Positions 1,070 to 31,433 of a stretch of 64,000 nt of DNA are shown here, piece by piece. The notes below the pieces were generated by a model. The model saw nothing but the letters and a program-made list of their open reading frames with translations. It had not been told where the DNA came from and made no database searches. The position numbers were made by a program, and so were the translations under genes. Position 1 is the first letter of the stretch. Each line of letters begins with the position of its first letter. The DNA is from an uncultured bacterium (GTDB taxonomy: Bacteria; Patescibacteriota; Minisyncoccia; Phycocordibacterales; Phycocordibacteraceae): assembly GCA_947085505.1 (NCBI GenBank), contig CAMTWI010000003.1, positions 7,319-71,318 of the forward strand, written 5' to 3'.

Positions 1070-2365
1070 TTAGTGCACTACTCCCAGGTGCGGAATATCG
1101 AGCGATTTCTTTCCGTCTTTGCTTGCAGGAACAAATCCACGTACAACCTTCGTTCGATATTTTGCACCAGAACCTGCAAGGGCTTCCATACTCGAACCAA
1201 GATATATGGTATTACGTCCATACCTTTGATTAACCAAGTCCTGTGCACGAAACACTCCCTCCTTCTCCTGACTCTGTGCGTACGCACCAAAGAGATCAGG
1301 AGTAACTGCATCCTCCACTCGAAGACACCGAAGTGTCACCCCGGACGCACGATACAAAATTCCTTCTGCGTACACTTCATCGAAGCGTTTACGAATAGCC
1401 CTTAGCATTTCCGGCGGCGCGTCATACGCTGCAGGTAAATCGAGCTGTACGCCGTGATACGTAAACTCCTGCGTCTTCAGATAAAAACTAAGGGCACTTG
1501 CTTTCATGCCCGCACGCCGTACCTTCGCACATGCGCCTTCAACATTCTTCGAAAGCTGCGAGAAAATAAAATCCTTATCTGTAGAAGGCGGCGTAAAGGT
1601 GCGTGTCACCATAACCGACTGTGGTTTCGCATGCGCACCTGTAGAAAGAGTAATTGCAGGATACCCCTGAAGCTCGAGCCACGTATCGCGTACGGGTTTT
1701 GCAAACCCGTGTTCCTTGAGCCAAGCATCTGACTTCTGTATATAGTCGAGTGCGGTTATAACGCCGAGCCCTCGCAAGCGCGTGGAGAGCGCACCGCCAA
1801 GTCCCCAGATATCGTAAATCTCAGTGTCGGCGAGCACTCGTTCGATGTCTTTTTTCGGAAGCGCCGTAAAGCCGGCGGGCTTGTTCCTTTTCGATGCGAC
1901 CTTAGCAAGCGTCTTTGACGGCGCGAGTCCCACACCAAACGTAATCCCGAGACTTAGCTCGAGCTTCGCTTTTATCGCTTCCGCGATCTCTTCGTAGGAT
2001 TGTCCGCGACTCTCGTTCAATCCTGTGATGTCTGCGAAACATTCGTCGATACTGTACTCCTCAACCTTCGTCGTGAAGGTCTTCGCGATTGCATACATCC
2101 GCTTCGCATAGATTGAGTACGCGGTATAGTCTCCGACGAGCACGATGACACTCGGACACACTCTCCGTATCTCTTGCATGGGCATACCGCGATGCGCACC
2201 GAGCATCTTCGCTTCCTTTGAAAGCGACGTAACCGCCCCACGCTCTCCTCCCGTGACGACCGGCTTCCCACGAAGTCTATAATCCTTCGCCTGCTCAACC
2301 GACGCGAAGAACGAATCACCATCGAAATGCACAATCGCCCGAGGATACGAGCCCGACTGGTCCAT
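1070..2365 (-). CDS. Y-family translesion DNA polymerase (DinB/UmuC/ImuB-like)
   Basis: HFDGDSFFASVE matches the Y-family palm motif. The start is trimmed to ATG 2363-2365 (MDQSG...) because the ORF-track N-extension overlaps lexA. This start abuts the lexA stop at 2367-2369, giving an operon arrangement. Confidence 0.8.
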   Translation of the reverse strand: MDQSGSYPRAIVHFDGDSFFASVEQAKDYRLRGKPVVTGGERGAVTSLSKEAKMLGAHRGMPMQEIRRVCPSVIVLVGDYTAYSIYAKRMYAIAKTFTTKVEEYSIDECFADITGLNESRGQSYEEIAEAIKAKLELSLGITFGVGLAPSKTLAKVASKRNKPAGFTALPKKDIERVLADTEIYDIWGLGGALSTRLRGLGVITALDYIQKSDAWLKEHGFAKPVRDTWLELQGYPAITLSTGAHAKPQSVMVTRTFTPPSTDKDFIFSQLSKNVEGACAKVRRAGMKASALSFYLKTQEFTYHGVQLDLPAAYDAPPEMLRAIRKRFDEVYAEGILYRASGVTLRCLRVEDAVTPDLFGAYAQSQEKEGVFRAQDLVNQRYGRNTIYLGSSMEALAGSGAKYRTKVVRGFVPASKDGKKSLDIPHLGVVH

Positions 2366-2366
2366 A

Positions 2367-2972
2367 TTATTTATAGGTACGGAACGTGGACGAAACCTTC
2401 CCCACAATCTCTCCTTCCTTGGGATAGATATCGGGATACCGATCGTTCGCTGCTTCAAGATAAAACGCTTTCCCTTTCTTCCGAAGATACTTCAACGTGT
2501 AGCCATCCTCCGTGAGCGCAACAACGATGTCGCCTGGCCTGTAGTCCTGGGTGCGCTCGAAGATAACCATGTCTCCACTCTGGATCCCAGCATCCTCCAT
2601 AGAGTCTCCTTCTACCGTTAACAGATAGCTCGCGTTCGGGTTCCCGACCAAATACTCCCCAATCGAAACAGTGTCAGCTAGCTCTTCCTCCGCAGGCGCG
2701 GCGAACCCTGCGCGCACATGCCCGAGCAAAGGAATCGAGAAGAGGCCTGCTGCGGGTATGAGCTTTCCGGTCTTATCCTTTGTTACATATCCCTCTTCAA
2801 TCAACCGACTCGAGACATAGAACGCAGAGCTGCGACTTGAAAGCTTAAAAAGCGTAAGCATCTCGGTAATGCTCGGCATGCGCCGGTTCTTCCTATAAAA
2901 GGAGAGGAGTTTCTCACGTCTCTGAAGGAGTGATTCCCTACCGTTATTCATCCCTGCAGTGTATTCGAACAA
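2367..2972 (-). CDS. lexA: LexA SOS repressor (N-terminal wHTH plus C-terminal S24 peptidase)
   Basis: S24 catalytic signatures GDSM and a downstream K are present. The 201 aa length is typical. The ORF track uses TTG at 2972. An ATG at 2949-2951 is an alternative start. The SOS box overlaps this 5' region. Confidence 0.8.
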   Translation of the reverse strand: MFEYTAGMNNGRESLLQRREKLLSFYRKNRRMPSITEMLTLFKLSSRSSAFYVSSRLIEEGYVTKDKTGKLIPAAGLFSIPLLGHVRAGFAAPAEEELADTVSIGEYLVGNPNASYLLTVEGDSMEDAGIQSGDMVIFERTQDYRPGDIVVALTEDGYTLKYLRKKGKAFYLEAANDRYPDIYPKEGEIVGKVSSTFRTYK

Positions 2973-2983
2973 ACGTTCGAATA
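2962..2983. promoter_or_regulatory. LexA operator, Cheo/Gram-positive-type SOS box TATTCGAAC-AAAC-GTTCGAATA
   Basis: Perfect 9+4+9 inverted repeat with a CGAAC-N4-GTTCG core. It sits at the lexA 5' end, consistent with autoregulation. Confidence 0.7.
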
Positions 2984-2995
2984 CAAGAGAATCCC

Positions 2996-3640
2996 CTATG
3001 TAAATATCTCCCGCATCATCTCCTCGCCCAGTACTTCAAGAAGAGCTATGGCCTCTGGCTGATCGCTCCCGTATCCGTTTGCGACCTTCTCGTGCTGGTG
3101 CTTGAGGAACTCATTTGCACTCGCAACATCGTGCCCTTGCTTCAAGAACGTCGCTCCTTTATTGAGTGCATTCGTTATCTTCGGAAGCGCCTTGTCCACA
3201 ACTTTAACGAATCTAGCTTCGGGCGTATCTCGCCGCTCATACGCGTCGATTGTCTCGCCAAGCCAGGGCAACTCTGCATCGAACTCTGTACGGAGGCGCA
3301 AGAGTGCTTCTGCTTCACGCTCTTCCTTGCTCGTGTGATCTGCGTCAGAAAGAATGCGCGCCGTGGGCGTATCTCCCGCGTACACTTCCACGAAATCATG
3401 GACGAGTGCGAACTCGGCTATCCGTCCACGATCGAGTGTGGGTGCGAAGCGCTCCGCAAACGCACACGCAACGAGCCCAAGCATAACGGTGTGGTCCGTG
3501 TCAGACTCAGGAGTCACTCCATCCGGGTGGCACGTGATCCGGTTCACTCTCCCAAACGCGAGCGAAAGTTCTCCCAAATCAACGATTGCCTGAATGGCTT
3601 CTTTGGTGAGCTCAGGCTTCTGCATAAAACTAAATACCAA
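2996..3640 (-). CDS. HD-domain phosphohydrolase (YfbR-like 5'-deoxynucleotidase family)
   Basis: HD-domain signatures appear as H...HD...D in ESDTDHTVML and LVHDFVEVYAGD. Length is about 210 aa. Confidence 0.6.
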   Translation of the reverse strand: MVFSFMQKPELTKEAIQAIVDLGELSLAFGRVNRITCHPDGVTPESDTDHTVMLGLVACAFAERFAPTLDRGRIAEFALVHDFVEVYAGDTPTARILSDADHTSKEEREAEALLRLRTEFDAELPWLGETIDAYERRDTPEARFVKVVDKALPKITNALNKGATFLKQGHDVASANEFLKHQHEKVANGYGSDQPEAIALLEVLGEEMMREIFT

Positions 3641-4305: not shown

Positions 4306-4557
4306 ATGGCACGCGAATGCGCAGTAACCGGAAAGACAACCCAGATTGGTGGGCGGTACTCTAACCGTACCCGTGCAACCCAGTTCAACCCAACTGGAAA
4401 GGTACGCCGCCAGGCAAACCTCCATAAGCGCCGCATCTTCGTAGCGGAACTCGGCAAAATGCTCCTCGTCGACATCAGCGTCAAGGGCATGCGCCACATC
4501 AAGAAGAACGGCGCCTTCGCCACTCTGAAGAAAGCAGGCATCATCAAGATTAAGTAG
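4306..4557 (+). CDS. rpmB: 50S ribosomal protein L28
   Basis: MARECAVTGK...NRTRA... matches L28. Size is 83 aa. A hairpin terminator follows. Confidence 0.85.
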   Translation: MARECAVTGKTTQIGGRYSNRTRATQFNPTGKVRRQANLHKRRIFVAELGKMLLVDISVKGMRHIKKNGAFATLKKAGIIKIK

Positions 4558-4561
4558 GAAC

Positions 4562-4588
4562 GAGCCGGAAATACCGGCTTTTTTCTTT
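4562..4588 (+). terminator. rho-independent terminator after rpmB
   Basis: GCCGG-AAATA-CCGGC hairpin followed by a T-run. Confidence 0.6.
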
Positions 4589-4634
4589 TATATAAAGTAG
4601 AACCCGCCCTTTTTAGGGGGCGGGGCTCCTTTGT

Positions 4635-4883
4635 TCAGGCGTTCGCGTTTGGTGGCGGGAAGACCTGACGGTCTTCGCACATAATACGTTCGCCATCTAT
4701 GCTCCGGAACGACTCGAGTGTAATTTGAGCAATTCCGAAATGTTCAGCAAAGCGTGCAAGCGCTTCACTGTCGGTAGACTCGTAGAGGGTGAGTATCGAA
4801 CGGCCAAAGAATTGGTATTGGTTTTTTAGTTCGATAGTAGAACTCAACTCCTCCTTACCTAAGGTACTGCTACACTGGGGCAC
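4635..4883 (-). CDS. hypothetical small protein
   Basis: ORF only. A GC-hairpin lies downstream at 4603-4624. No recognisable motif. Confidence 0.3.
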   Translation of the reverse strand: MPQCSSTLGKEELSSTIELKNQYQFFGRSILTLYESTDSEALARFAEHFGIAQITLESFRSIDGERIMCEDRQVFPPPNANA

Positions 4884-4962
4884 CGCCCACTCCTCTTCTG
4901 GTTACTGGTTGGCACGCCCCACAGCAAGTAAACGCCTCTTCATCTAACTGGTCAACCTATGG

Positions 4963-5826
4963 CTATTTCTGCACGACAGCCTTCCCGTCGCTCACAAACG
5001 TAATTGTCCCGAATTCTATAGTCGAAACTAGCATTGCACCTGACTCACGTATACGCGCAACCACGTCTTCGTGCGGATGCCCATACGAGTTATCTCTTCC
5101 GGCTGACACCACCACAATCGATGGATCGACCGCCGCAAGAAACGTCGGGCTGGTTGAGGTCTTCGAACCGTGATGCCCGGCCTTGAGCACATCACTGGCG
5201 ATCACGCCTCCATACCTAGCAACAATCCGGTCCTCCACCCACGCAGACGCATCTCCGGTGAGCATAAATTCAGTATCTCCATACACCACCCGCATCACAA
5301 TTGATGCGTCATTGGTCTCGCGTAATTGAGCGACGTTATCTTCAGGATGCAGGATATCTGCATACGCACCTCCACCAAGATGTATGCGCATACCGTTACG
5401 CAGCACTCCTTTCTGAATTCCCAGCTCTCTATCAACTGAGACTTCGAGGCTTTCATACAGACTGGTGTCCCCTTCCCTACCAGGCTCAAAGAATCGCGTG
5501 ACTCTGTAGCGATCAAATACTCCCGGCAATCCGCCAATATGATCGGCATCAGGATGCGTTGCCACAACAATGTCGATGCTTCTATCAAGCGGACCCATGA
5601 GGCGCGGAAGCTCCCGCAATACCGAACGATCCTTTCCGCCGTCAATAAGCATCTCGATGCCAGTTGGTCCTTCAATGAGAATCGCATCTCCCTGTCCCAC
5701 ATCGAGGAATGAGACCGTGAGCTCATGCGACACTGGTCTTGTGAGATACCCAAATACAGCAATGTTAGAGAGTACGAGCACAAGAAGCGTGAGGATAAGC
5801 GCGGGATTCGGGATCCTGGTCTTCAT
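4963..5826 (-). CDS. ComEC/Rec2-type metallo-beta-lactamase domain protein (C-terminal module of ComEC encoded separately, own TM anchor)
   Basis: The MBL motif HPDADHIGG (HxHxDH) and later GHHGS are present. An N-terminal TM follows MKTRIPNP. Start trimmed to ATG at 5826. Confidence 0.7.
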   Translation of the reverse strand: MKTRIPNPALILTLLVLVLSNIAVFGYLTRPVSHELTVSFLDVGQGDAILIEGPTGIEMLIDGGKDRSVLRELPRLMGPLDRSIDIVVATHPDADHIGGLPGVFDRYRVTRFFEPGREGDTSLYESLEVSVDRELGIQKGVLRNGMRIHLGGGAYADILHPEDNVAQLRETNDASIVMRVVYGDTEFMLTGDASAWVEDRIVARYGGVIASDVLKAGHHGSKTSTSPTFLAAVDPSIVVVSAGRDNSYGHPHEDVVARIRESGAMLVSTIEFGTITFVSDGKAVVQK

Positions 5827-5881
5827 ATCCTCATAATGGCACGTACGCGATATACTGCTCGCACATCTAACCCGCAATCCT

Positions 5882-6463
5882 ATGTCCTACACCGCCCGCA
5901 CGTTTGCACTTCCTGAACTGAAAGGTCTCTCGCCTGATCAGATAGCCGTACACCTCGCACTCTATGAGGGCTACGTAAAACACACGAATCTTATTCTCGA
6001 CACGATACAAAAACTGCGTACAGAAGATGCGGACGGGAATGCATTCGTTATAAACGAACTGAGGCGTCGCCTTGGCTTTGAGTTCGACGGTATGCGCATG
6101 CATGAGTACTACTTCGAACAGTTCGAAGGCGGGGCGCAACCATCAGGTACAGCGCTACAGAAAATGGCGAGCGAGAAATATAGAAGTTGGGACGGATTCA
6201 TTACACACATAAAAGAAGTAGCTGGTACCCGCGGCATCGGCTGGGTGGTGGTGTATCACGACCCGAAAGCAGCAACACTTCACACCGCATTCGTGAACGA
6301 TCATGAGCTTGGACAGCTCGCGGGACTTCCTATCCTTCTTGCTGTTGATCTCTGGGAGCATGCCTACATGGTTGATTACAAGCCGGCGGAAAAGAAGACC
6401 TATGTCGAGGCGTTCCTTGAGAACGTAAACTGGAGCGTTGTTGAAGGAAGACTCTCTACCTAG
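5882..6463 (+). CDS. sodA: Fe/Mn superoxide dismutase
   Basis: The SOD signature DLWEHAYM is present, the N-terminal alpha-hairpin residues are conserved, and the protein is 193 aa. Confidence 0.85.
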   Translation: MSYTARTFALPELKGLSPDQIAVHLALYEGYVKHTNLILDTIQKLRTEDADGNAFVINELRRRLGFEFDGMRMHEYYFEQFEGGAQPSGTALQKMASEKYRSWDGFITHIKEVAGTRGIGWVVVYHDPKAATLHTAFVNDHELGQLAGLPILLAVDLWEHAYMVDYKPAEKKTYVEAFLENVNWSVVEGRLST

Positions 6464-6466
6464 CAG

Positions 6467-7948
6467 TTAGTGCCGAAATGCCCGTGAAGTCTCTGAGTTT
6501 GCGGGCATTTTTGCTATAACGTACCCCAACCCGACATATGAAAGCACCGTCACAAAGAACGGGAATTGTGGAATCGATACTGAAGCAAGCGAAAGACTGC
6601 TTACAAATTCCGCTAGATAAATAATGAACGAGAGAACGAAGTGAGCAGGGAGCCCCAAAAGCGGCGCAGCCCCCGGGAGAATGACGCCCATAACACCGGC
6701 AAGTGCTGAAAGTAGCATTGCAAGTGGAACGAGCGGGAGCACAAGAAGATTCGCAGGTAATGACACGAACGAAAAAAGACCCGTCTGATACAGAAGGAGC
6801 GGGAGTACCGCAATCTGTGCAGCGAGAGTAGCAGCAATCAGGTCTCGCCAGAACGGGCTTTGAACTATTGTTAAGCGTAACTCTATAATCGGTGCAAGCA
6901 GAATGAGCCCAAGCGTTGCGATAAAGGACAATTGGAATCCGGGGTCGAACGCAAGCAGAAGTGGATTCATAAGAAGCATAATCACCGCCACAACAAAGAG
7001 CGCGCGCACTACCGCATACGTTCTCCCGGTAGCGCGTGCAATGAGTCCAAGTCCTGCCATAAGCCCAGCACGAATACTTGCCGCTCCCGCTCCCGCTGCA
7101 AGCACAAAGAGTGCGATAACCACGCCCGCAAGGATTGCACTCGATCGGCGCGGCAAGAATGCGAACGTGCGCAGGACACCCTCTGCAACAATCATGACGT
7201 TATAGCCTGACAGAACAACAATGTGCACGAGTCCAGCAACAATGAATGCATCGAGAAGCGTTGTTCCGAGCCCCTGTTTCCCGCCCGTTATGAGCCCGCT
7301 TGCAAGTGATGCTCCTGGCTCTGGTATTGCTTGCGCAAGTCCTTCCTGGAATACGTGCTTTCCGTTAAGCAGGACTCTCATCACATAGGTCTCGAGATCT
7401 TCTCCGGGTCCGATTGTCTCAAGCGATGCGGACTTAACGAGCGCGAATATCGTATCCTTTGCCAAGAACTGATCGTACCTGAACGTGCGACCAGTATCCG
7501 TTTCAAATGGTTCAGGATGCTCGAGCTTCCCTCGCACTATCACCTCTGCGCCATAGGAAATCTCTGGATAGAGCGGTGCGACAGCGAGAACCCTGGCAGA
7601 ACTCCCGTCCTTCGTCACCTCAAGTCTTATACGCTGTGTAGTTTCCCGAATGTCCGGTTCCGCAATGACGGTCCCTTGAAGTTCTATCTCGCTTCCGATA
7701 AGCGGTAAGAACTCTGGCGACAAGGACGCCGGAGCAAGCATGACGCGCCCAGCACCAAGTATTGATCCGATAACGAACACAGCGCAGACGATGTAAAGAG
7801 TTCGCTGCTTTAAGAACCACGCGAGACAAAGAATGCTCACAACAACGAACATGAAAAGCAAAAATGATAGCGGCAAAAAGAAAAACGAGCGACACAAAAT
7901 GCCGCTCGCGAATCCCAACAGTCCCGCAACTAAGAGGGAGTCGCGCAT
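6467..7948 (-). CDS. comEC: ComEC/Rec2 competence protein, N-terminal part (OB-fold/DUF4131 plus competence channel domain)
   Basis: Polytopic membrane protein. The OB-like soluble insert follows the first TMs. The competence-domain motif GLVHIVVLSGYNVM is present. No MBL domain is present in this ORF. Confidence 0.7.
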   Translation of the reverse strand: MRDSLLVAGLLGFASGILCRSFFFLPLSFLLFMFVVVSILCLAWFLKQRTLYIVCAVFVIGSILGAGRVMLAPASLSPEFLPLIGSEIELQGTVIAEPDIRETTQRIRLEVTKDGSSARVLAVAPLYPEISYGAEVIVRGKLEHPEPFETDTGRTFRYDQFLAKDTIFALVKSASLETIGPGEDLETYVMRVLLNGKHVFQEGLAQAIPEPGASLASGLITGGKQGLGTTLLDAFIVAGLVHIVVLSGYNVMIVAEGVLRTFAFLPRRSSAILAGVVIALFVLAAGAGAASIRAGLMAGLGLIARATGRTYAVVRALFVVAVIMLLMNPLLLAFDPGFQLSFIATLGLILLAPIIELRLTIVQSPFWRDLIAATLAAQIAVLPLLLYQTGLFSFVSLPANLLVLPLVPLAMLLSALAGVMGVILPGAAPLLGLPAHFVLSFIIYLAEFVSSLSLASVSIPQFPFFVTVLSYVGLGYVIAKMPANSETSRAFRH

Positions 7949-7951
7949 AGG

Positions 7952-8368
7952 CTACATCTCTCTATCCATCGCCTCATTCGCAAGACGGTCCGCATCCTTA
8001 TTGAAATCCCGATATACGTGCTCAAACGAAACAGACTTGAAAAGACGAACGAGTTCGCCAACTCGTTGAGCTAATGGCTTGAGGCCCGGATGCTTCAGCT
8101 TCCACTCTCCAGTCATCTGCTTCACTACAAGCATACTGTCCATACAGACCCGAACTTCCGCCTCAGATGCTTTTGACTCAAGCATCGCTGCGAGCTTCTC
8201 GAGTGCCCGGAGAACGGCGGTATACTCAGCGACGTTATTCGTTGCAACACCCAAAAACTCAGACACGGTGGCTACCGTCTCACCGGCCTCGTTTCTGATG
8301 ATTGCCCCGCTGCCAGCCGGACCGGGATTTCCACGAGACCCGCCGTCGCCATAGATAGTGAAACGCAT
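7952..8368 (-). CDS. rnhA: ribonuclease HI
   Basis: YGDGGSRGNPGPAG N-terminal motif, the acidic catalytic residue pattern, and a length of 138 aa. Confidence 0.8.
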   Translation of the reverse strand: MRFTIYGDGGSRGNPGPAGSGAIIRNEAGETVATVSEFLGVATNNVAEYTAVLRALEKLAAMLESKASEAEVRVCMDSMLVVKQMTGEWKLKHPGLKPLAQRVGELVRLFKSVSFEHVYRDFNKDADRLANEAMDREM

Positions 8369-8445
8369 CGGTTGAGTATACCAATTGCAAAAGCGAAAGC
8401 CGGGGTCCCTGTTCTAGGGATTCCCGGCTCTTCTGGCTGCCCCGC

Positions 8446-8826
8446 TCAGAGCAGTTTTATTGGTCGGCTCCAGAGTCGACCATCGTTGCGCAGATGCGGA
8501 CAGGTAATGCCCTTTCGAATATCTGGATACTGCTTCGAAATACCATCCAGCACGAAAGCCTTGAGCGAAACAACGAAGGCGAGGAGAAGGGCTCGTGAAT
8601 GCCGCTCCTGCTTCGACAGTCCTTTTGCGTGCCCGACATCGTTGAGAAGTCGGGCGAGCACCATGCACTCAAGGAGTAGCCGCGGTGCCTTTTCAAGACT
8701 GAACTCATGAGGACGGGGCTCTGGAAACCCTTCCAGCATCAAATTGATCTGCTCATCCATGTCGCCAACCCACTCAGGGATTAGCTTATCTAGTGAAACC
8801 ATTCTTTCCTCCCACAATAAGAACAA
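8446..8826 (-). CDS. hypothetical protein
   Basis: ORF between recJ and rnhA. No recognisable motif. Confidence 0.3.
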   Translation of the reverse strand: MFLLWEERMVSLDKLIPEWVGDMDEQINLMLEGFPEPRPHEFSLEKAPRLLLECMVLARLLNDVGHAKGLSKQERHSRALLLAFVVSLKAFVLDGISKQYPDIRKGITCPHLRNDGRLWSRPIKLL

Positions 8827-8847
8827 GTAATAACCCTAGCAGAACCC

Positions 8848-10584
8848 CTACCCTATAGCAATGATACGTAATCGTATCGGTTGTCCTCGTGAAAAAGTAT
8901 CTTCCTCCAAATGCGCGAGAAGAGAGATGCATTGTCCCTTCTCAAGTCGCGCACATGCGTCGCCAAGCTGACGCTTTGCGTAGAACGTCATAGCCTCTAT
9001 AGGAGCCTCCGGAAACTCCTCGTGTCCACGCCCTATCGTTAAACGAAGATGTTCCTCTGCTTTTCCAAACCAGGACACCTGCTCAAGACGCACCTCATGA
9101 AACGCAATAGAGGGTTTTGCATTACCCATACCAAACGGCGCGAGTGTCTGCAGTCGCTTCAAGACTTCTTTTGATACTGCTTCGGGTGTCATAACTGCGT
9201 CAGCACGCACCGCTTCGCGCCCGTCTTCTTTCGGGAGTGAGGCGAGTGTCCTTGCAAGTCGCTCCTCAAGATCAAATACTGCATCGGGCGCAACCGAAAA
9301 CCCTCCCGATGCCTTGTGCCCGCCAAATCCAAGAAACGTGTCACCCGCCGCGCGCATAAGCTCTACAACGTTGGTGTTCCCGGGTCCCGAACGGCATGAT
9401 CCTTTCATAGTGTCGTTGCCTTCGCGCCCCCACAAAAACACCGGGCGTCCGTATTCTTCAGCGATACCATTCGCAACAAGGCCCAAGAGTCCTGGTCTCC
9501 AATCCGGGTCCCCCATAGCAATAACAGAAGACAGTTCCTTCCCTTCCATCTTTCGCTCGAGCAGACGCTCATGCACGGCACGCGTAATCGCACCTGCTGA
9601 TGCACGCCTGGAACGATTCAAGGCCTCAAGCTTTTTCGATAACTGATCCGCTTCAGACTCACTTGTTGTTGAAAGAAGCAGGAACGCATCACGAGGATCG
9701 CCCATGCGGGACGCCGCATTGATACGTGGCGCAATCATGAAACCGACGTCTCCTTCTTCAATCTTTCCCTGATTCACCCTCGCAGCTTTGCAGAGCTTTA
9801 TAAATCCGATGCGCGGAGACTTTCGCATAACAAGAAGCCCATACGAAGCGATGACACGGTTCTCACCTGTGAGCGGCACCATATCCGCAATTGTTGAGAG
9901 ACCAGCCATATCAAGAAGCCACTTCTCCCAGCCTTCTGGAATCAAGTCGCGTCCGGGAAACCCTACCGCAAGCGTTGCACACACAAGTTTCCATGCAACG
10001 CCAGCACCACAGAGACTCTTATACGGATAGGTCTCTTCTGATCGTGCATTTGGGTTAAGAATTGCAAACGCAGGCGGCAATTCTTCCGCGGGAAGATGGT
10101 GATCGGTCACAATCACTTCCATACCAAGCTCGTTCGCTCGTGCAACGGCTTCCACGTCCGTAATACCGGAGTCAACCGTCACCACAAGCGTCACACCCTC
10201 CCCAGCAAGCTTCTCGAGTCCCGGAATATTTACCCCGTATCCTTCGTTGTGGCGATGCGGTATATAGTTCACGAAATTCGCACCGGCCTTCTTAAGAAAG
10301 TCGTGGAGCAGAACCCCGCCCGGAATACCGTCGCAATCGTAGTCGCTCCATACGGCAATCTTTTCACTGTCCCCTATCGCCGCCGCCACTCGTGCAGCTG
10401 CCTTTGGCATATCAAGCATGAGCATCGGGTCGTGGATATGTGCGTCATACGAAGGCGAGAGGAATGCTTCTGCGTCTTCCGCAGTTGTAATGCCGCGACG
10501 TGCAAGTAAGGCAGCCGTTATATCGTCATATGCCTTAAGGGCTTCGCGGACTGAATCGTCTATCGGATCATGGAGTAGGAACAT
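8848..10584 (-). CDS. recJ: single-stranded-DNA-specific exonuclease RecJ (DHH/DHHA1)
   Basis: The DHH motif VIVTDHH is present, the domain order is typical of RecJ, and the protein is 578 aa. Confidence 0.85.
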   Translation of the reverse strand: MFLLHDPIDDSVREALKAYDDITAALLARRGITTAEDAEAFLSPSYDAHIHDPMLMLDMPKAAARVAAAIGDSEKIAVWSDYDCDGIPGGVLLHDFLKKAGANFVNYIPHRHNEGYGVNIPGLEKLAGEGVTLVVTVDSGITDVEAVARANELGMEVIVTDHHLPAEELPPAFAILNPNARSEETYPYKSLCGAGVAWKLVCATLAVGFPGRDLIPEGWEKWLLDMAGLSTIADMVPLTGENRVIASYGLLVMRKSPRIGFIKLCKAARVNQGKIEEGDVGFMIAPRINAASRMGDPRDAFLLLSTTSESEADQLSKKLEALNRSRRASAGAITRAVHERLLERKMEGKELSSVIAMGDPDWRPGLLGLVANGIAEEYGRPVFLWGREGNDTMKGSCRSGPGNTNVVELMRAAGDTFLGFGGHKASGGFSVAPDAVFDLEERLARTLASLPKEDGREAVRADAVMTPEAVSKEVLKRLQTLAPFGMGNAKPSIAFHEVRLEQVSWFGKAEEHLRLTIGRGHEEFPEAPIEAMTFYAKRQLGDACARLEKGQCISLLAHLEEDTFSRGQPIRLRIIAIG

Positions 10585-13806: not shown

Positions 13807-15228
13807 TTACTCCTCTCGCCAGTCTACAAATTGATAGTCGCTTGAGGTCTGTGGCGTGAATGGCGGAGGGTCAGTTGCGAGATTGCGATCGTACGCGTCG
13901 ATACGAGTTTGATACCCAGCCGAGTTCGTGCAACTTGTATTGAGGCACCATTTTGTGCCAGTACGGAGATTCGATACCGTTGTACCGAGAATGGTAAGCG
14001 TGCCGCGCGCATCATACGATGAGTTTCCATAGTAGTTGCGACCGAACGCACCTCCCTGTGCCACAAAAATACCGTTGAGTGTCATATTGTACGGAGAGTC
14101 GGGAGTGATAAGGATATTATTCTGTGCAATAACTGTGAGACCATCACTTCCGTCTGTCTGTGCATACGTTAGATTTCCTGGAAGCATTACGTTTGGTTTG
14201 ATACCAGTTGTTGTGACGTTCGCCGCCACAACCGTTACTTTTGTATCCACCACTCCCTCAATCCAGACGTTATCCTCAACAAAAATGAGTCCGCAATTTT
14301 CAGGGACGGTAATCGTCGAATAGAAGGTTTCGTTGCCAACAAGCTGGCGATCCGGTAGATCGTCGTCACTCGGATTAATGTGTGTCGAAGGAACTGATGA
14401 GGCAGTGGTAATACGCGTAACCGTCACCGTCCCACCTGCATTAAACCGAAGACGATACCCACGCCAGTAACTCGTAGCATTCGTGACGTTGGTCTCACTA
14501 AAGCGCGGCAAATAGTATCCATCGGCAAGAGCCTTCGTTTTAAGGCTCGCGAAATCAGCGGATATCGCACCGAAGTCTACCTGCGGCACTGGGTAATCCC
14601 AGAGATTTGTATTTGTTCCTGCACCCCACACCCCTGCCTTCGTCTGGTTTGGCGAGCACCCAAACGCTGAGGTACATAGCCAGGTCGAAAGCGAACTTGT
14701 TACCGGAGAGTTAATTGTGCCGTCCATGCGGATTCCCCCATTCGAATGGTAGGGGCCAAGGATCACACGATCTGAACCTGCCCACACACTGTCGTTGAGC
14801 ACATACGAGAATCGCGCGACCGTTGGACGCGCATATCGCGTCGTTATAGTGCGTGAGATTGTTGAATGTTCTACGGGCGTACCTGTAGAACTAATATCAA
14901 TAGAGGTGAGCGTGTCACATGAAGTGTTCCCCGTTATTGAAAGCTCGATGGTTCCAATCTCCCCACCCTCCGGGTCCATGTACGGAATAATATACGGACC
15001 CGGTTGTCCCGTACCGTTCGTGAGATCGTTCGGATAGTGTGCAAGAAACCACCGATAGTACTCGATACCCGCCTCAGCGATCGCAATCGCGCGAGCTGAA
15101 GCTGTCGCGTTTGTTTGAAACCGATTCTCTGAAAGCACGAAACCTGAAAGAGCGCCGAGCACAGTAACAAACACCGCACCAAAGACAATCGCCAGGAGCA
15201 TGAGGTATCCACGAGGGGGAGAGTGTTT
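13807..15228 (-). CDS. PilX-like type IV pilus minor pilin/assembly protein
   Basis: An N-terminal TM is followed by an A..AEAG PilX_N-like motif (SARAIAIAEAGIEYY). The rest is a large serine/threonine-rich ectodomain. It is the last gene of the minor-pilin operon. Confidence 0.5.
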   Translation of the reverse strand, partial: KHSPPRGYLMLLAIVFGAVFVTVLGALSGFVLSENRFQTNATASARAIAIAEAGIEYYRWFLAHYPNDLTNGTGQPGPYIIPYMDPEGGEIGTIELSITGNTSCDTLTSIDISSTGTPVEHSTISRTITTRYARPTVARFSYVLNDSVWAGSDRVILGPYHSNGGIRMDGTINSPVTSSLSTWLCTSAFGCSPNQTKAGVWGAGTNTNLWDYPVPQVDFGAISADFASLKTKALADGYYLPRFSETNVTNATSYWRGYRLRFNAGGTVTVTRITTASSVPSTHINPSDDDLPDRQLVGNETFYSTITVPENCGLIFVEDNVWIEGVVDTKVTVVAANVTTTGIKPNVMLPGNLTYAQTDGSDGLTVIAQNNILITPDSPYNMTLNGIFVAQGGAFGRNYYGNSSYDARGTLTILGTTVSNLRTGTKWCLNTSCTNSAGYQTRIDAYDRNLATDPPPFTPQTSSDYQFVDWREE

Positions 15229-15235
15229 CATAAAA

Positions 15236-15847
15236 TTATTCGCTACGAAGATTACGCAGCGTTGCACCACCTTCTATAGTGAGAATGTTTGGGGCGCGCT
15301 GCGGATTGATATCGACATCGAGTCGTGCACGAATAGTACGCACAGCGGCAATGTTAATGCTACCAGTAAGTTCAACGCCGTCGCTATCGAAATAGCGGAA
15401 CGCGGGTGTTGCCGCATCGTTCTTCACCCACGTCGCAATAATAGACGTCGATTCAGTCTGTCCCGTATAGGATGGCGGGTTTCCCCCAGCATTCGTTACT
15501 CCCTGGTACAGGACGCCACCTGAGAGGTATAACCGGATACGCTCTATCGAATGGTCTGCATCTCCATTTGCGTAGAACGTCACCGACGAAGTCGCTGCTG
15601 CCATAAGCGGGTACGACCCGTCTTCTCCATATGAGGCAGCTCGCAAAAGCGCTAGTGATTCATTGACTCCACGACTCGCACTATCCACCGCACTCGTAGC
15701 CTCAAGTAGGTACGCATTTGAGCGGTAGAAATACGAAATCATTGAGAGGAGACCGACACCGACCAGGCCCGTAAGTCCAATAACCACAACCATCTCCATA
15801 AGGGTAAATCCTCTAGAAGTGAGTGCGACGGAAGATGTGCGGTGCAT
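15236..15847 (-). CDS. type IV pilin-like protein with canonical prepilin leader
   Basis: Leader MHRTSSVALTSRG|FTLMEMVVVIGL follows the class III signal G-F-T-L-x-E plus a hydrophobic helix. Confidence 0.7.
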   Translation of the reverse strand: MHRTSSVALTSRGFTLMEMVVVIGLTGLVGVGLLSMISYFYRSNAYLLEATSAVDSASRGVNESLALLRAASYGEDGSYPLMAAATSSVTFYANGDADHSIERIRLYLSGGVLYQGVTNAGGNPPSYTGQTESTSIIATWVKNDAATPAFRYFDSDGVELTGSINIAAVRTIRARLDVDINPQRAPNILTIEGGATLRNLRSE

Positions 15848-15850
15848 AGA

Positions 15851-17329
15851 TTATTGAATGATATAAATGGCCTCGGTCGTCATCCCCGGCTCAAGAGTAT
15901 GTGGTGGTGTCGACGTTGGACTTACGAGGCTGTATCCCGGAATGGTAAGCGTATACACATCCCACTCAAGCGTGAGTGCTCGGTTCCCCGTCACGTCCGT
16001 AGTGCTTTCTATAATTGTCTTATAGAGAGGATCACCCGCTCCCGTCGTCCCCTTTCTCTTAGCACCAGTGAAAGTAAAAGGAACGTTTGGTAACGGTAAC
16101 GGCCCCTCTTCAAACGTAATCTGCCAACTCTCAACCGAAGGGGTGCTGAGTCCGTCCGCACTCGCAAGAGATGCGCGCAACGCAAGTCCCGGATAGGTTG
16201 AGGTAGAAACACCTGTCAGGTCTATGGGAAACGTAGTGAACCCGATACTGTTTCCAGGAATCACCGCGTCCGGAATGAGTCCGCCCGCGCTATCAGTAAC
16301 AGAGACCGTATAGCTGGTAGCAGCAGGAGTAGTTACTGAAGCCTGAATTGAAGTCCACTCGGCCAAGTACACAGGTGCAGTGGTTATCGACCGAGCGCTT
16401 CCAGAGAATGCGTAACTACCCGGAGCACCTGCGAGCATAAGCGCGCCAGCACTCACCTGCACTGACAGCATCTCCTCAAGATTAGAAGCGTCAGTAAACG
16501 TGTCGCTTGACACTGCCTGCCGGATTGGTTCAAACGTGCGGAGCGTAAACGAGGAGAGTACATCAATAGCGAACGTGCTCGTGGTCGTTTGGCCCAAGGA
16601 AACCGTGAGGTATCCTGGTGTCGGATTCTGATTCGTTACATCGCGTGCATACGTCTGCGCAGTCGAGTACCCATCTTTGGTAACAGTAATACGGTAGTCG
16701 GTTGATGTTGGTGCACCCGGGAGCGATACGCTGCCAGCGCTATCAGAAAACGTGATGAGGTCGATTGCAGGAGAGACGCTTGAATTTTCGATATGTACCG
16801 AAGCACCAGCAACCGCACCCCCGACCGCATTCACGACATTCACACGCAGGGTGCCTCCCCCTGCCGTTGTTTCAATCGAGGGTGGTACGACATTCGAGAC
16901 AATAACAATCTCTCGCTCCTCTCCACGGAACTGATACGTCGCTGCAATACGAACACGCTTGTAGTCTGTCGTAATACCGTTAGAATCTGCCGCTCCAAAC
17001 CCGTCCTTGGGATCATCCACATACTGAATGAGTGTGCGGACACCGTACGGAATACCGTTCATAGTTGTGGTCGCATACTGCTCGATAGGTCCCGCAGGAA
17101 TACCCCCAAGCGTACCAACATTGTCATAGGACAGGGAGCGAATATATTCCATCTGCGTTGTTGCCACCGCAGTGCCCCCGGCCTTTGCCTTCGAGGAAGA
17201 AGAGATGAGGAGTGATGCACGCAAGAGTCCGAGGAGTGCAAGAAACACAATAAGAATGAGTGCGATGCCAACAATGACATCTACCAAGGACATGCCGCGC
17301 GGTGCATTCATACACGTATGATAACGCAC
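15851..17329 (-). CDS. large type IV pilin-like minor pilin (PilV/FimU-like)
   Basis: APRG|MSLVDVIVGIALILIVF is prepilin-like, but carries D rather than E at +5. Large T/S-rich ectodomain. Confidence 0.5.
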   Translation of the reverse strand: MRYHTCMNAPRGMSLVDVIVGIALILIVFLALLGLLRASLLISSSSKAKAGGTAVATTQMEYIRSLSYDNVGTLGGIPAGPIEQYATTTMNGIPYGVRTLIQYVDDPKDGFGAADSNGITTDYKRVRIAATYQFRGEEREIVIVSNVVPPSIETTAGGGTLRVNVVNAVGGAVAGASVHIENSSVSPAIDLITFSDSAGSVSLPGAPTSTDYRITVTKDGYSTAQTYARDVTNQNPTPGYLTVSLGQTTTSTFAIDVLSSFTLRTFEPIRQAVSSDTFTDASNLEEMLSVQVSAGALMLAGAPGSYAFSGSARSITTAPVYLAEWTSIQASVTTPAATSYTVSVTDSAGGLIPDAVIPGNSIGFTTFPIDLTGVSTSTYPGLALRASLASADGLSTPSVESWQITFEEGPLPLPNVPFTFTGAKRKGTTGAGDPLYKTIIESTTDVTGNRALTLEWDVYTLTIPGYSLVSPTSTPPHTLEPGMTTEAIYIIQ

Positions 17330-17342
17330 CGATACATGCTCT

Positions 17343-17588
17343 CTAGCGGTTCTGGCGACCCGGCTTCAATAGTTTCGATAAGAGCGCAAAGAGTTCAATC
17401 CCCTCCTGCCTCGTAATCTGCATTTCAGAGTCCTCGTCCGGACCAGTCACAAACAACACGACACCGGGAATCCCTTGTACGGGCTCCTCGCTTACGCGTA
17501 CATATACATCGTTCCCTTTCTCGTTCCGGAAACGAGTTGATACCACCTTACCTATAGCCATATGCAGGCAGTGTAGCTCAGTTAACAA
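17343..17588 (-). CDS. hypothetical small cytoplasmic protein, first gene of the minor pilin operon
   Basis: ORF only. It ends 14 nt upstream of the pilV-like gene. A terminator lies upstream of it. Confidence 0.3.
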   Translation of the reverse strand: MLTELHCLHMAIGKVVSTRFRNEKGNDVYVRVSEEPVQGIPGVVLFVTGPDEDSEMQITRQEGIELFALLSKLLKPGRQNR

Positions 17589-17632
17589 TCTGGGACGATG
17601 TTAGAACTTTTTACATAAATATATAGACCACA

Positions 17633-17668
17633 AGAAAAGACCGGCTTGGTATAAGCCGGTCTTTTCTT
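17633..17668. terminator. bidirectional hairpin terminator
   Basis: AAAAGACCGGCTTGGTATAAGCCGGTCTTTTCTT. Confidence 0.6.
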
Positions 17669-17682
17669 ACGTAGGGTATGTA

Positions 17683-18321
17683 TTACGCCTCAGTCTTCAC
17701 AAATAGCTTTGTGAACCATCCAAACAAGCTGAAACTTTGCTCGTTTTCGGTAACAAAGCCATCAAGCTTAACTAGCTCATCCTTGAGTAAACTAATCTGA
17801 GCTTCAAGATCAGCGCGTACAGACGCATCGGTTGTCTTGCTGAGAGTGTTCTCAAGTCGCTGGATATCAGCGTTACTCTTTGCAATATTGCTTCGTACGG
17901 CTCCTGCGTTCTTCCAATCTGTGCCGAAGAGGAAATCTAGAATATTGCTTCGCTTTTCAACCTTTGTCATAGCCTCAACCGTTGTTGACGCTGAATCATT
18001 CTGTGAGTTCGCAACTGCACGTACCTCTGTGCCTATGGCACGATCACGGTCTGCAACAGAGAGTAGCGACTGAACGAAGGTAGCAACCATACTGCGATGT
18101 GACTCTGCAGTTATTTGTCCACGTGTAGTCGTCGAAGCGTTACCTCCCTTGTTGCCAGCATTCACCTGAGCCTCGCTGTTACCGCGAGTGGATGTCTCCT
18201 GAGAATTTGCTTGTGCGTTTACACTTACATCAACGTCAGCCTGAATGCCAGGTACCTGCGCATGTGCAGCTGTTGCTGAGAATAGAACGGCTAGTGTAAG
18301 AATGGGTATTAGTTTAATCAT
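17683..18321 (-). CDS. secreted alpha-helical protein (signal peptide, AHA|Q cleavage-like site)
   Basis: N-terminal signal peptide MIKLIPILTLAVLFSATAAHAQ, followed by a Ser/Thr/Asn-rich region and a C-terminal coiled-coil-like segment. Confidence 0.45.
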   Translation of the reverse strand: MIKLIPILTLAVLFSATAAHAQVPGIQADVDVSVNAQANSQETSTRGNSEAQVNAGNKGGNASTTTRGQITAESHRSMVATFVQSLLSVADRDRAIGTEVRAVANSQNDSASTTVEAMTKVEKRSNILDFLFGTDWKNAGAVRSNIAKSNADIQRLENTLSKTTDASVRADLEAQISLLKDELVKLDGFVTENEQSFSLFGWFTKLFVKTEA

Positions 18322-18428
18322 AGGTTAGATAATGAAGGTAATGCGTAATCATAGTGTACTACCTTACTCTCCATAGATGACGGCTGGACACCTAGAGTCT
18401 TACTCTAGGTGGGAGACTAGAGATAGAA

Positions 18429-19640
18429 CTAAATCTTATCCGAAAGCGAGTAGATAGGCGTAATCATCGCCATCGCGAACACACCCACTGCGCTTCCGAT
18501 GAAAAGCATAAGTACTGGCTCGATAATAGTGGAGAGGTCCTTGGTACGTTCTTCAACATCGTTCTCATAGTACTGCGCAACTTGCCCGAGCATGTCTGCC
18601 ACCTTTCCTGTCTCTTCGCCAACCGCAATCATGTCGCCGACGAATACTGGATAGAGTTTTGCGTGGTCCGTGAACGAGACTGAAAGTGTTTCACCTTTAC
18701 GAACACGCTCTTCTGCTTCCTTAATCACTTTTCCAAACGGGTTATCGCCAACCACCTCCGCAGCAATACTGAGTGTCGAGAGCATCTCAACGCCTGACGA
18801 CAAAAGCGAGGACATTGCCCGAGCGGCCCTAGCACTCATAGTCTCGCGAACGAGCTCGCCGATAACCGGAACACGGAGCGCAAGGAACAGCGTTATGCGG
18901 CCTCCAATCTTAGATTTTAAGAAGAATATAAAACCTGTAATGAAAACAACGAGCATGACGAACACGAGAATCGCATTCGACGCCATAAAGTCTGATGCGC
19001 CGATAATTATTTTCGTTGCGGTTGGCAGCTCAACGTTAAGCTCCTTAAACGTGTTAGAAAGCGTCGGTACGACGAAAATCATCATGAGGATACCGATAAT
19101 GATGATCGCGACGAGGATAATCGCAGGATAGATCATCGCGCCCTTCACCTTCTTTTGAAGGTTATTCGCCTTCTCCATCTGTCGTGCAACAACCGCAAGT
19201 GCATCAGCTAAGGTTCCTGACTCCTCACCTGCCTTACTCATCGCAATAAAGAGATCGGAGAATACCTTCCGATGCCTGGCGAGGGCCTCATGAAAAGACG
19301 AACCTTTCTTTACCTCCTCCTCGAGATCCATCACGATCTTCTTGAGTGCCTTGTTCTTTGTCTGTCGCTCAATAACGGAGAGTGCGCGGGTAAGTGTGAG
19401 ACCTGCAGCAATCATAGCCGCGAGATTCTTGGTGAATGTAATCTTCTCGTCAGTCTTCACACCGGTCCCAATCGTCATCTGCATCCACGCCGGCATAAGC
19501 GTACCGCTTCCCTCTTGTACAGACACAACGACACCCCCTTCTTTTTCTACTTGCTCATACACCGCGAATCTTGATGCGGCTTCGAGCACACGCTTCGTCT
19601 CTTCTCCTTCAGGACTCTTTGAGGTTACGCGAAATTTCAT
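18429..19640 (-). CDS. pilC: type IV pilus assembly platform protein PilC/GspF
   Basis: Two GspF repeats and three TM segments are present, with conserved motifs AMIYPAIILV and EPVLMLFIGSAVGV. Confidence 0.85.
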   Translation of the reverse strand: MKFRVTSKSPEGEETKRVLEAASRFAVYEQVEKEGGVVVSVQEGSGTLMPAWMQMTIGTGVKTDEKITFTKNLAAMIAAGLTLTRALSVIERQTKNKALKKIVMDLEEEVKKGSSFHEALARHRKVFSDLFIAMSKAGEESGTLADALAVVARQMEKANNLQKKVKGAMIYPAIILVAIIIIGILMMIFVVPTLSNTFKELNVELPTATKIIIGASDFMASNAILVFVMLVVFITGFIFFLKSKIGGRITLFLALRVPVIGELVRETMSARAARAMSSLLSSGVEMLSTLSIAAEVVGDNPFGKVIKEAEERVRKGETLSVSFTDHAKLYPVFVGDMIAVGEETGKVADMLGQVAQYYENDVEERTKDLSTIIEPVLMLFIGSAVGVFAMAMITPIYSLSDKI

Positions 19641-19740
19641 AAAAGAATCGTAGCATGCAAAATGAAACGGGCCGGACTCTCTAAAGGAGAATCCAGCCCG
19701 TGAACTATCGGTTCATGAACGCGAGCCGAGACGTGATGAC

Positions 19741-20088
19741 CTAGTGGCCGCGTCCCTTGGACGCGTGGACATCCGCCAGCGGGTCGGAATGCCGATGGCC
19801 AACGAACGTAATGGCGAGCATGCCGGCCAGGATTCCGAAACCGATGGCGAACGAAAATGCACTGCCAGACCAGCCGGTCGCCATAATACCGACAGCGACG
19901 GCGCCGATACCGATGACCCAGGCGAACCAGTCCGGCTTCCTGGCGATCAGGGCGGTAAAGAAGGCCAGAACTCCAGCCAACAGGTAGAAATGCAGGCTGC
20001 TGGGCATCAGGTTCAGGACCACGGCCCCACCGAAGACTGCGGCCAACGCAAGGCCAATGGCGACAAGAAATTTGGACATGCTATTCAC
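19741..20088 (-). CDS. small polytopic membrane protein of atypical (GC-rich) composition
   Basis: 115 aa with about 4 hydrophobic helices. Local GC is roughly 60% or more by hand count, against a background of about 50-55%. GCC/GCG-biased codons. It is inserted between pilC and pilB. Confidence 0.45.
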   Translation of the reverse strand: MNSMSKFLVAIGLALAAVFGGAVVLNLMPSSLHFYLLAGVLAFFTALIARKPDWFAWVIGIGAVAVGIMATGWSGSAFSFAIGFGILAGMLAITFVGHRHSDPLADVHASKGRGH

Positions 20089-20170
20089 TCCCAGGACGCG
20101 CGTACCTAGTTAATCCAGATACTCTTTCGCGTCTCCTCCCTGGTTATACGCCCGCTGTACTAAAATGCAA

Positions 20171-29580: not shown

Positions 29581-29654
29581 TGGTGCGGGATAGGAGAATC
29601 GGACTCCTGCTCTCAGTTTGGAAAACTGATGTTCTACCATTAAACTAATCCCGC
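29581..29654 (-). tRNA. tRNA-Gly (anticodon UCC), CCA encoded
   Basis: Hand-folded cloverleaf. Acceptor GCGGGAT/ATCCCGC. Anticodon stem TCAGT/ACTGA with loop TTTCCAA. The T-loop TCCGATT is slightly atypical. Confidence 0.6.
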
Positions 29655-29701
29655 TTCGGCTCGAGAATACCATATTCTCTTGCCCTCTGTCTTCATCCTA
29701 G

Positions 29702-29772
29702 TCGGGGTGCGGAGAATCGAACTCCGTCAACTACTTCCCAAAAGTAGCGTACTACCGGTATACGACACCCCG
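29702..29772 (-). tRNA. tRNA-Pro (anticodon UGG), no encoded CCA
   Basis: Acceptor CGGGGTG/CACCCCG. Anticodon stem CTACT/AGTAG with loop TTTGGGA. T-arm CGGAG-TTCGATT-CTCCG. Confidence 0.7.
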
Positions 29773-30087
29773 AGCGACTAACGGGATGCGCGTTGGCACA
29801 TCCCTACAGGAATACCTTCTCACGAATCTCCTGTCTTCGCTATCCTAACAGATTAATATGATTTACGGCAGAGAGCCTTATGCGCTCTCGGAGGGTTCAT
29901 GGCGTCTCTTATTTCTGTGGATATGTGTCGAATATCTTCATGTCTCTCAGCACAGAGGTCCTTAAGAGAGACTTATACAAAACCTAATAAGAATAAGGGT
30001 ATTTTTAGGACCGTGAAGATTTCTTCACATTTGTCCTATGTCCTTTATCCCCAGTGTTAACACCTTTATCCCCTGTTGTCCCAAACA

Positions 30088-30116
30088 CAAAAGACAGCCG
30101 ATTGAGCTGTCTTTTG
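30088..30116 (-). terminator. hairpin terminator downstream of tRNA-Gly(GCC)
   Basis: AAAAGACAGC-CGATTGA-GCTGTCTTTT. Confidence 0.5.
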
Positions 30117-30127
30117 CTTTCTCATGC

Positions 30128-30201
30128 TTGGTGCGGATAGGGAGAATCGAACTCCCGACTCGTCCTTGGCAAGGACGCGTTTTACCACTAAACCATATCC
30201 G
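30128..30201 (-). tRNA. tRNA-Gly (anticodon GCC), CCA encoded
   Basis: Acceptor GCGGATA/TATCCGC. Anticodon stem CGTCC/GGACG with loop TTGCCAA. T-arm GGGAG-TTCGATT-CTCCC. Confidence 0.75.
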
Positions 30202-30247
30202 CTACGAGGGGCATCATAGCACACGGAGTGCCGCACGTTCCAGTATT

Positions 30248-31429: not shown

Positions 31430-31433
31430 AATG

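Follow-up and report, generated by a model that had tools for sequence, protein, structure and literature searches.

Separate genes for the channel and nuclease halves of ComEC on either side of a superoxide dismutase gene in an uncultured patescibacterium and its relatives

We analysed a stretch of 64,000 nucleotides (nt) from an uncultured patescibacterial genome (contig CAMTWI010000003.1, positions 7,319 to 71,318; hereafter the window), in which the competence protein ComEC appears to be encoded by two genes. The two open reading frames (ORFs), one for a membrane channel (ComEC-N) and one for a metallo-beta-lactamase (MBL) nuclease, lie on the minus strand, and a superoxide dismutase (SOD) gene sits between them on the plus strand (Table 1). 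This arrangement had been proposed by a reading made from the sequence only, and both the ORF listing, which holds the three ORFs at the coordinates and on the strands proposed, and the Pfam content of their products agree with it. We think it probable, though far from assured, that ComEC in this organism is a two-subunit protein whose nuclease is supplied in trans.

The channel and nuclease halves and the gene between them

ComEC-N consists of three N-terminal transmembrane (TM) helices, an OB fold (PF13567, DUF4131; E-value 1.6e-15, 57.6 bits against a cut-off of 31.6) and a competence domain (PF03772; residues 219-478, E-value 4.6e-47, 161 bits against a cut-off of 23) that ends after the helix equivalent to TM10. 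As the sequence-only reading had supposed, Pfam found no MBL domain in this product; nor was there one in any of the best 120 listed homologues, which were mostly about 480-500 amino acids (aa) long. The MBL half begins with a short N-terminus bearing K/R, followed by a TM helix at about residues 10-28 and then by the MBL domain (PF00753, Lactamase_B; E-value 6.8e-14). Its active site is intact, with the motif H91-x-D93-x-D95-H96, and residues H91, D93, D95, H96, N172, D192, H218, H219 and H250 are retained in 110-112 of 112 MBL sequences. The anchor is conserved too: 236 of 244 stand-alone relatives have an N-terminal hydrophobic segment preceded by K/R. The MBL protein changes more quickly than the proteins encoded around it, the window and its relative L003 (labels of this kind, L003, L006, L009 and so on, denote sampled loci or contigs and not the window) being 80% identical in MBL and 90-93% identical in SOD, RecJ, RNase H and the M50 protease. 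In one 721-aa protein from the search of representative proteins (P0245), two stretches match the MBL query, the best of them near the N-terminus (residues 40-291), and this protein may be a tandem or otherwise extended MBL form.

Three comparisons place the two products on full-length ComEC. The TIGR00361 (ComEC_Rec2) model has 663 positions, of which ComEC-N matches 113-351 (66.9 bits) and the MBL half 421-659 (E-value 2.6e-35, 121.7 bits); each half on its own falls short of the equivalog cut-off of 190.05 bits, which is set for the whole protein as one polypeptide. On the 801-residue chain of full-length ComEC 30bt, the alignment of ComEC-N spans residues 10-461 and that of the MBL half residues 514-789 (E-value 2.5e-32). 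Finally, on a fused ComEC of 792 aa from a Chloroflexota genome (L088), ComEC-N aligns to residues 83-469 (37% identity, E-value 4e-51) and the MBL half to residues 522-783 (42% identity, E-value 2e-59), while the 34 and 21 unaligned end residues of the halves correspond to 52 residues of the fused protein. Because the three comparisons (NCBIfam, solved structures and a fused relative) agree, we read the two ORFs as the two halves of ComEC, which by these alignments tile without overlap and cover the complete domain set. The best profile and solved-structure matches of the downstream ORF are to the C-terminal part of ComEC, in keeping with the sequence-only reading and not with an unrelated stand-alone hydrolase.

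On this tiling the break is predicted to fall in the cytoplasmic loop between TM10 and TM11. Cryo-electron microscopy of ComEC places a short cytoplasmic helix between TM10 and TM11, both of which are peripheral, and TM11 is absent from the map of one protomer (PMC13539106). Since the break lies in this loop, no structural element would be lost by it, and since the halves tile with the break between TM10 and TM11, the helix of the MBL half would be the equivalent of TM11 in full-length ComEC. The K/R ahead of this helix fits insertion with the N-terminus inside and the C-terminus outside, which would give the nuclease the external position that it has in single-chain ComEC. We modelled the two halves with AlphaFold2 as an artificial end-to-end fusion with an unpaired block alignment, and obtained a mean predicted local distance difference test score (pLDDT) of 87.8, mostly above 80 in the ComEC-N part, with disorder at the junction only (486-500). 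In this model ComEC-N opens with three helices, after which residues 87-180 form a beta-barrel. The best Foldseek match of the MBL part is 9ic4, the crystal structure of the C-terminal domain of Moorella glycerini ComEC, at a template-modelling score of 0.86 (normalised to the 266-residue target) and a root-mean-square deviation of 2.7 A. An alignment-free AlphaFold2 run on the concatenated halves gave a pLDDT of 40, and that model was discarded as meaningless.

The three genes are tightly packed. The stops of ComEC-N and SOD converge tail-to-tail 3 nt apart (6463 and 6467), while the SOD start (5882) lies head-to-head with the MBL start (5826). The sequence-only reading had put 3-4 nt between SOD and the stop of each neighbour; this holds on the ComEC-N side, but on the MBL side the two starts face each other across 55 nt. 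We take the ATG at 5826 as the MBL start, rather than the TTG at 5877 that is assigned mechanically, because the homologues are about 287 aa long and M1 is invariant in them. The ComEC-N start at 7948 likewise follows from homologues of 493 aa at 100% coverage, in which M1, G16 and S21 are invariant. Proteins identical to those of the window were found on three independent contigs, and since the layout also recurs in dozens of species, the locus reflects neither chance nor an assembly error.

The intervening gene encodes an SOD with a clear C-terminal domain match (PF02777, Sod_Fe_C; E-value 5.1e-19) and a weak N-terminal one (PF00081; E-value 0.021, 15.7 bits against a cut-off of 27), and its residues 16-191 align across both domains to archaeal and Aquifex Fe-SOD structures. 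H24, H74, D156 and H160, which from standard SOD motifs and the Fe-SOD structure alignment are presumably the metal ligands, are retained in 116-117 of 117 orthologues. We found no functional link between this SOD and the ComEC halves.

Table 1. Features of the window, with positions counted in nt from its first base
Feature	Position	Strand	Description
ComEC channel half (ComEC-N)	6467-7948	-	493 aa; OB/DUF4131 + Competence
Fe/Mn superoxide dismutase	5882-6463	+	193 aa; Sod_Fe_C, Fe-SOD structure alignment
ComEC nuclease (MBL) half	4963-5826	-	287 aa; one N-terminal TM helix + metallo-beta-lactamase domain
Divergent SOD-MBL spacer	5827-5881	.	55 nt between facing start codons
Hairpin + U-run	6475-6511	+	12 nt past SOD stop, within final ComEC-N codons
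RecJ / 126-aa ORF / RNase H block	7952-10584	-	upstream of ComEC-N, same strand
RNase H	7952-8368	-	Pfam RNase_H/RVT_3
126-aa ORF	8446-8826	-	flanked by RecJ and RNase H; without Pfam or PADLOC matches
RecJ	8848-10584	-	Pfam DHH/DHHA1/RecJ_OB
Y-family polymerase	1070-2458		overlaps LexA-like S24 peptidase
LexA-like S24 peptidase	2367-2972		
HD-domain YfbR-like hydrolase	2996-3640		
Pilin-like protein	15236-15847	-	N-methylation motif; type IV pilus cluster
PilC-like T2SSF	18429-19640	-	type IV pilus cluster
PilB-like ATPase	20171-21925	-	type IV pilus cluster

Distribution and transcription of the split locus

To survey relatives we used two samples, each classified by phmmer: 80 genome loci from species representatives, with the MBL protein as anchor, and 80 metagenome contigs, with ComEC-N as anchor. 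Among the genome loci, 45 have an opposite-strand SOD between the halves and 13 have the halves split with no SOD between them; a further 12 have SOD and MBL with ComEC-N missing from the available flank (10 of these had less than 2.7 kb of upstream sequence), nine have MBL only, and one is fused. The metagenome contigs likewise include 45 with the full three-gene layout and seven with a split without SOD, while 13 reach SOD and then end, two have SOD but no MBL, three have no MBL within 4 kb, 10 are too short for classification and none is fused. The layout seen in the window, with SOD facing ComEC-N and reading away from MBL, is thus that of about half of the 160 loci sampled, and the sole fusion among the 160 is the one from a Chloroflexota genome. 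The gene order extends further: four relatives, Parcubacteria bacterium C7867-004 among them, share RecJ, RNase H and ComEC-N, then SOD on the opposite strand, MBL on the first strand again and, opposite once more, L28, followed by the M50 protease and the HD hydrolase, and the order RecJ-RNase H-ComEC-N is kept in most related loci.

The listed relatives keep the separate forms from 100% down to 58% identity for MBL and 50% for ComEC-N. An exhaustive search of 1.84 billion representative proteins returned 58,157 relatives, and of the best 150 of these about 135 are stand-alone (270-310 aa), while eight are fused ComECs of about 800 aa with 41-46% identity. The sequence-only reading had suggested looking for the same split at orthologous loci, and it is present in most of the relatives sampled; by these counts the split is the norm in the lineage rather than peculiar to this genome, and we regard it as ancient.

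SOD cannot be the defining part of the split, since it is missing from the split loci of some lineages. In these SOD-less lineages the ORFs are separate and abut or overlap (by ATGA in L062, by more in L051 and L080), which would be the appearance of a gene split within one operon. We built neighbour-joining trees, which are crude and carry no support values and were used merely as hints on the order of events; in them the SOD-less adjacent splits lie nearest the fused form, and the other SOD-less cases are scattered among SOD-bearing ones. These placements hint that the split came first and that SOD was inserted later and then lost several times. Repeated loss would fit a report that SOD presence in Patescibacteria follows oxygen exposure (PMC8672522). 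The SOD is most likely a passenger fixed between the halves, and overlapping gene tails and a shared spacer could by themselves hold it in place.

A few loci depart from these layouts in other ways. L164 (5428-6513) is without both SOD and MBL, and in L054 (2487-3302), which has no ComEC-N at the locus, the MBL matches fall in two separate ORF pieces, possibly a pseudogene or a sequencing error.

An ordinary operon transcript covering both halves is not possible with SOD between them on the opposite strand, and several features of the window suggest that the halves are transcribed as separate units. The hairpin just past the SOD stop has a minimum free energy of -29 kcal/mol (z -4.95, with none of 200 shuffles as stable) and is likely to be the SOD terminator and a barrier to read-through. 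In 30 of 75 related loci a comparable hairpin (z < -2), in several cases bidirectional, lies behind the SOD stop, and in 57 of 93 loci the 3' ends of ComEC-N and SOD overlap. At the other end of SOD, the SOD-MBL spacer has a median length of 71 nt and is at most 120 nt in 65 of 107 loci, while in about one third of loci hundreds of bases or other genes separate SOD from MBL. The spacer of the window, of which L009 and L003 have nearly identical versions, contains a palindromic -10-like core, ATATACT (5850-5856; TATACT towards SOD), and a minus-strand GAGGA Shine-Dalgarno sequence (5832-5828) just upstream of the MBL ATG. The motif GTATAY/RTATAC occurs in 40% of the 65 short spacers, compared with 5% in shuffles (maximum 15%), so that the core is a putative promoter. 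In a scan of positions 4500-8500 for the sigma-70 consensus, the spacer had no site, and the total number of sites was lower than in shuffles. Together, the opposite-strand gene, the terminator hairpins and the enrichment of the -10-like motif lend indirect support to the independent transcription that the sequence-only reading had proposed. ComEC-N starts 3 nt from the RNase H stop, which suggests its co-transcription with recJ and rnhA; from this spacing, recJ, the 126-aa ORF, rnhA and ComEC-N probably form one transcription unit.

A two-subunit ComEC and competing explanations

How might such a protein work? The channel subunit, with its OB fold and competence domain, would be made from a transcript probably shared with recJ and rnhA, and the nuclease subunit would be made separately. 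The helix of the latter would insert with its N-terminus inside and its C-terminus outside, so that a Mn-type MBL domain would come to lie at the membrane's outer face. It would dock there beside the OB fold, as the C-terminal domain of single-chain ComEC does, and once docked would degrade the strand that is not transported. The SOD would be a passenger, with a terminator region (often overlapping 3' ends) in common with ComEC-N and a short divergent promoter region in common with MBL. Published biochemistry is consistent with such an arrangement: on its own the ComEC MBL domain has very little affinity for DNA, and tethering a DNA-binding domain to it makes it more active (PMC12455585). The stand-alone MBL protein has no DNA-binding domain of its own, and a two-subunit ComEC fits because the isolated domain needs such a domain close by. 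ComEC-dependent transformation has been shown only in a Saccharibacterium (PMC10633639).

A number of observations weigh against this two-subunit model, and several of them favour its main competitor, that the MBL protein descends from the ComEC C-terminal domain but now works alone as a membrane-anchored surface nuclease or phosphodiesterase, for example in nucleotide scavenging, its position beside ComEC-N being inherited gene order only. The physical assembly of the two halves would have to be assumed, and the joined-halves model, an artificial fusion built on an unpaired alignment, has a predicted template-modelling score of just 0.62. A mirror-tree comparison (41 loci, seven proteins; a weak test) gave a partial r of 0.06 for ComEC-N and MBL, below that of several unrelated pairs, and so no sign of special co-evolution. 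L158 (5428-6306) has ComEC-N and SOD with no MBL gene before L28. Conversely, L003 and L006 keep RecJ, RNase H, SOD and MBL while ComEC-N is cleanly absent from the locus (L003:5292-5370; L006:4709-5354); its place is taken in L003 by a 59-nt spacer with a bidirectional terminator hairpin, and in L006 there is a 144-aa ORF that matches neither ComEC-N nor the 126-aa ORF of the window. No ComEC-N of at least 50% identity from either contig is among the best 120 hits, and a ComEC-N profile scan of metagenomes did not return the L003 contig, but it also missed the L009 contig, which carries the gene. The L003 MBL has evolved at the rate of the window's (19 versus 18 unique changes, p 0.87), with no acceleration, and free-standing ComEC-like MBLs exist in Lysinibacillus, Ureibacillus and Anaerolineae. 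We nonetheless regard an MBL working alone as rather unlikely. Untethered, the isolated domain is a weak binder of low activity, and the protein here lacks the kind of added domain that the Bacillales proteins have; the great majority of loci still have MBL linked to ComEC-N, with ORFs that overlap when there is no SOD; the MBL anchor helix corresponds to TM11 of ComEC; and in L054, where ComEC-N is gone from the locus, the MBL gene is in two pieces. A variant of this idea, suggested by the genomes that keep SOD and MBL where ComEC-N is lost from the locus, is that the split left the nuclease free to become a surface DNase with separate regulation, turned on jointly with SOD by a single bidirectional control region and able to work without the channel. 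We consider this speculative and quite improbable; if true, the breakdown of extracellular DNA for nucleotides would in these ultra-small bacteria be uncoupled from its import for transformation.

Might SOD and MBL instead be a co-regulated functional pair under one bidirectional control region, serving for instance Mn/Fe supply or the response to oxidative stress, so that the position of SOD was selected and not accidental? Their head-to-head arrangement persists even where ComEC-N has been lost, the spacer is short in most loci and enriched in the palindromic -10-like motif, and the ComEC C-terminal domain is Mn-dependent (PMC8579336), the SOD here being of Fe/Mn type. However, the halves are split with no SOD between them in 13 species genomes and seven metagenome contigs, L158 has SOD without MBL, SOD and MBL are hundreds of bases or other genes apart in about a third of loci, a regulator site was not identified, and oxygen exposure explains the gain and loss of SOD (PMC8672522) without recourse to ComEC; we give this pairing little credence. 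Less probable by far is a comEC gene disrupted by an insertion and now in decay, or else an artefact of sequencing or assembly. ComEC is one polypeptide in most bacteria studied, and disrupted genes are known elsewhere, such as the split comEC of Rickettsia (PMC2635572). Here, though, both ORFs are intact and conserved across well over a hundred loci, whose identities range from 100% to about 40-50%, the active site hardly varies, the same sequence occurs on independent contigs, and the halves are separated by a whole functional gene rather than a frameshift; the conservation data refute this explanation. We attach virtually no weight to a role of the MBL protein in anti-phage defence, as part of a system of the Avs1a, LmuA or DRT MBL type. 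It has partial matches to Avs1a (66.7 bits) and, in PADLOC, to LmuA (86.9 bits) and RTasMBL (68.9 bits), but these cover only parts of the domain, fall far under the family cut-offs (420 for Avs1a) and are below the ComEC_Rec2 score of 121.7 bits, and there are no partner defence genes nearby, the neighbours being SOD, L28, an M50 protease, an HD phosphohydrolase, RNase H and RecJ.

Neighbouring genes, known systems and implications

Beyond the three genes, the neighbourhood is rich in DNA processing, with DNA-damage and nucleotide genes at 1070-3640 in addition to RecJ and RNase H, and its order is kept in relatives. Relatives also carry small unassigned ORFs in the RecJ-RNase H block, at varying positions, the one in L006 being unrelated in sequence. 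Between the MBL stop and the L28 stop lie some 400 nt (4558-4962) that hold an 82-aa minus-strand ORF without a family match (4635-4883) and a highly conserved stretch upstream. This region is conserved in L009 with a coding-like pattern of substitution and is absent from L003, where MBL and L28 are 14 nt apart. Just past L28 are two terminator-like hairpins (4562-4580 and 4603-4624), the second readable on both strands. A type IV pilus cluster occupies the minus strand at 13807-21925, 6-14 kb from the ComEC locus, and includes, besides the genes of Table 1, those for two large proteins (487 and 492 aa) that match known families barely or not at all. The Rfam matches in the window are limited to four tRNAs, with none near the ComEC locus; the four genes, all on the minus strand at 29581-31505, are Gly-TCC, Pro-TGG, Gly-GCC and Arg-TCG.

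The locus can be set beside several known systems. It shares with canonical ComEC/Rec2 (Bacillus subtilis, the Neomoorella carbonis cryo-electron microscopy structure, TIGR00361) three modules in the same order, namely three TM helices with an OB fold, a competence channel, and TM11 with an HxDxDH MBL nuclease, but here the chain is cut at the TM10-TM11 loop and the two genes flank one on the opposite strand. About half of sequenced ComECs are said to lack the MBL domain (Pimentel and Zhang, as cited in PMC8579336), and Meheust et al. found the ComEC-MBL fusion to be essentially absent from genomes of the Candidate Phyla Radiation (CPR; PMC6744442). Taken alone, ComEC-N is like these MBL-less proteins in having only DUF4131 and Competence, and is the CPR ComEC family of Meheust et al.; it is unlike them in that a gene 0.6 kb away encodes the 'missing' domain, as a protein of its own with a membrane anchor. 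Silale et al. called it an open question what becomes of the non-transported strand when ComEC has no C-terminal domain (PMC8579336). In Streptococcus pneumoniae a separately encoded membrane nuclease, EndA, degrades the non-transforming strand at the outer face alongside ComEC (PMC8579336). This is the division of labour proposed here, with the nuclease separate from the channel. EndA has a different fold and is not known to derive from ComEC, whereas the nuclease here would be the ComEC C-terminal domain itself.

Free-standing MBL proteins from Bacillales (L087, L091) and Anaerolineae (L083, 294 aa) are 38-44% identical to the MBL of the window and have the Lactamase_B domain. Unlike the MBL protein of the window, they carry cell-wall or calcium-binding domains or have unrelated neighbours, no ComEC channel gene is linked to them, and they cluster apart from the Paceibacteria proteins in the neighbour-joining tree. 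The two Bacillales proteins, whose MBL domains are 38-43% identical to the window's, are extracellular: that of Lysinibacillus antri (L087:7359-8984) has three SLH domains, MBL and Excalibur, and that of Ureibacillus endophyticus (L091:7992-9011) has MBL and Excalibur.

The papers that we searched on ComEC structure and evolution and on CPR genomics, together with a 2026 review of the phylum, mention neither a separate nuclease half nor the SOD arrangement, and in this literature, our coverage of which is incomplete, we found no published description of a split ComEC with a separate nuclease gene. If the two-subunit model is right, then in the Paceibacteria lineage at least the nuclease would not be missing but supplied in trans by a membrane-anchored protein, which would correct how the ComEC of CPR bacteria has been read in the literature. 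The competence potential of these genomes would also be read differently, the MBL half being named variously in public records as 'MBL fold metallo-hydrolase', often just that, or 'ComEC/Rec2 family competence protein'. For biochemistry on ComEC, which is hard to express whole, the TM10-TM11 loop would offer a natural cut point, and a similar search could be applied to other bacteria whose ComEC seems truncated.

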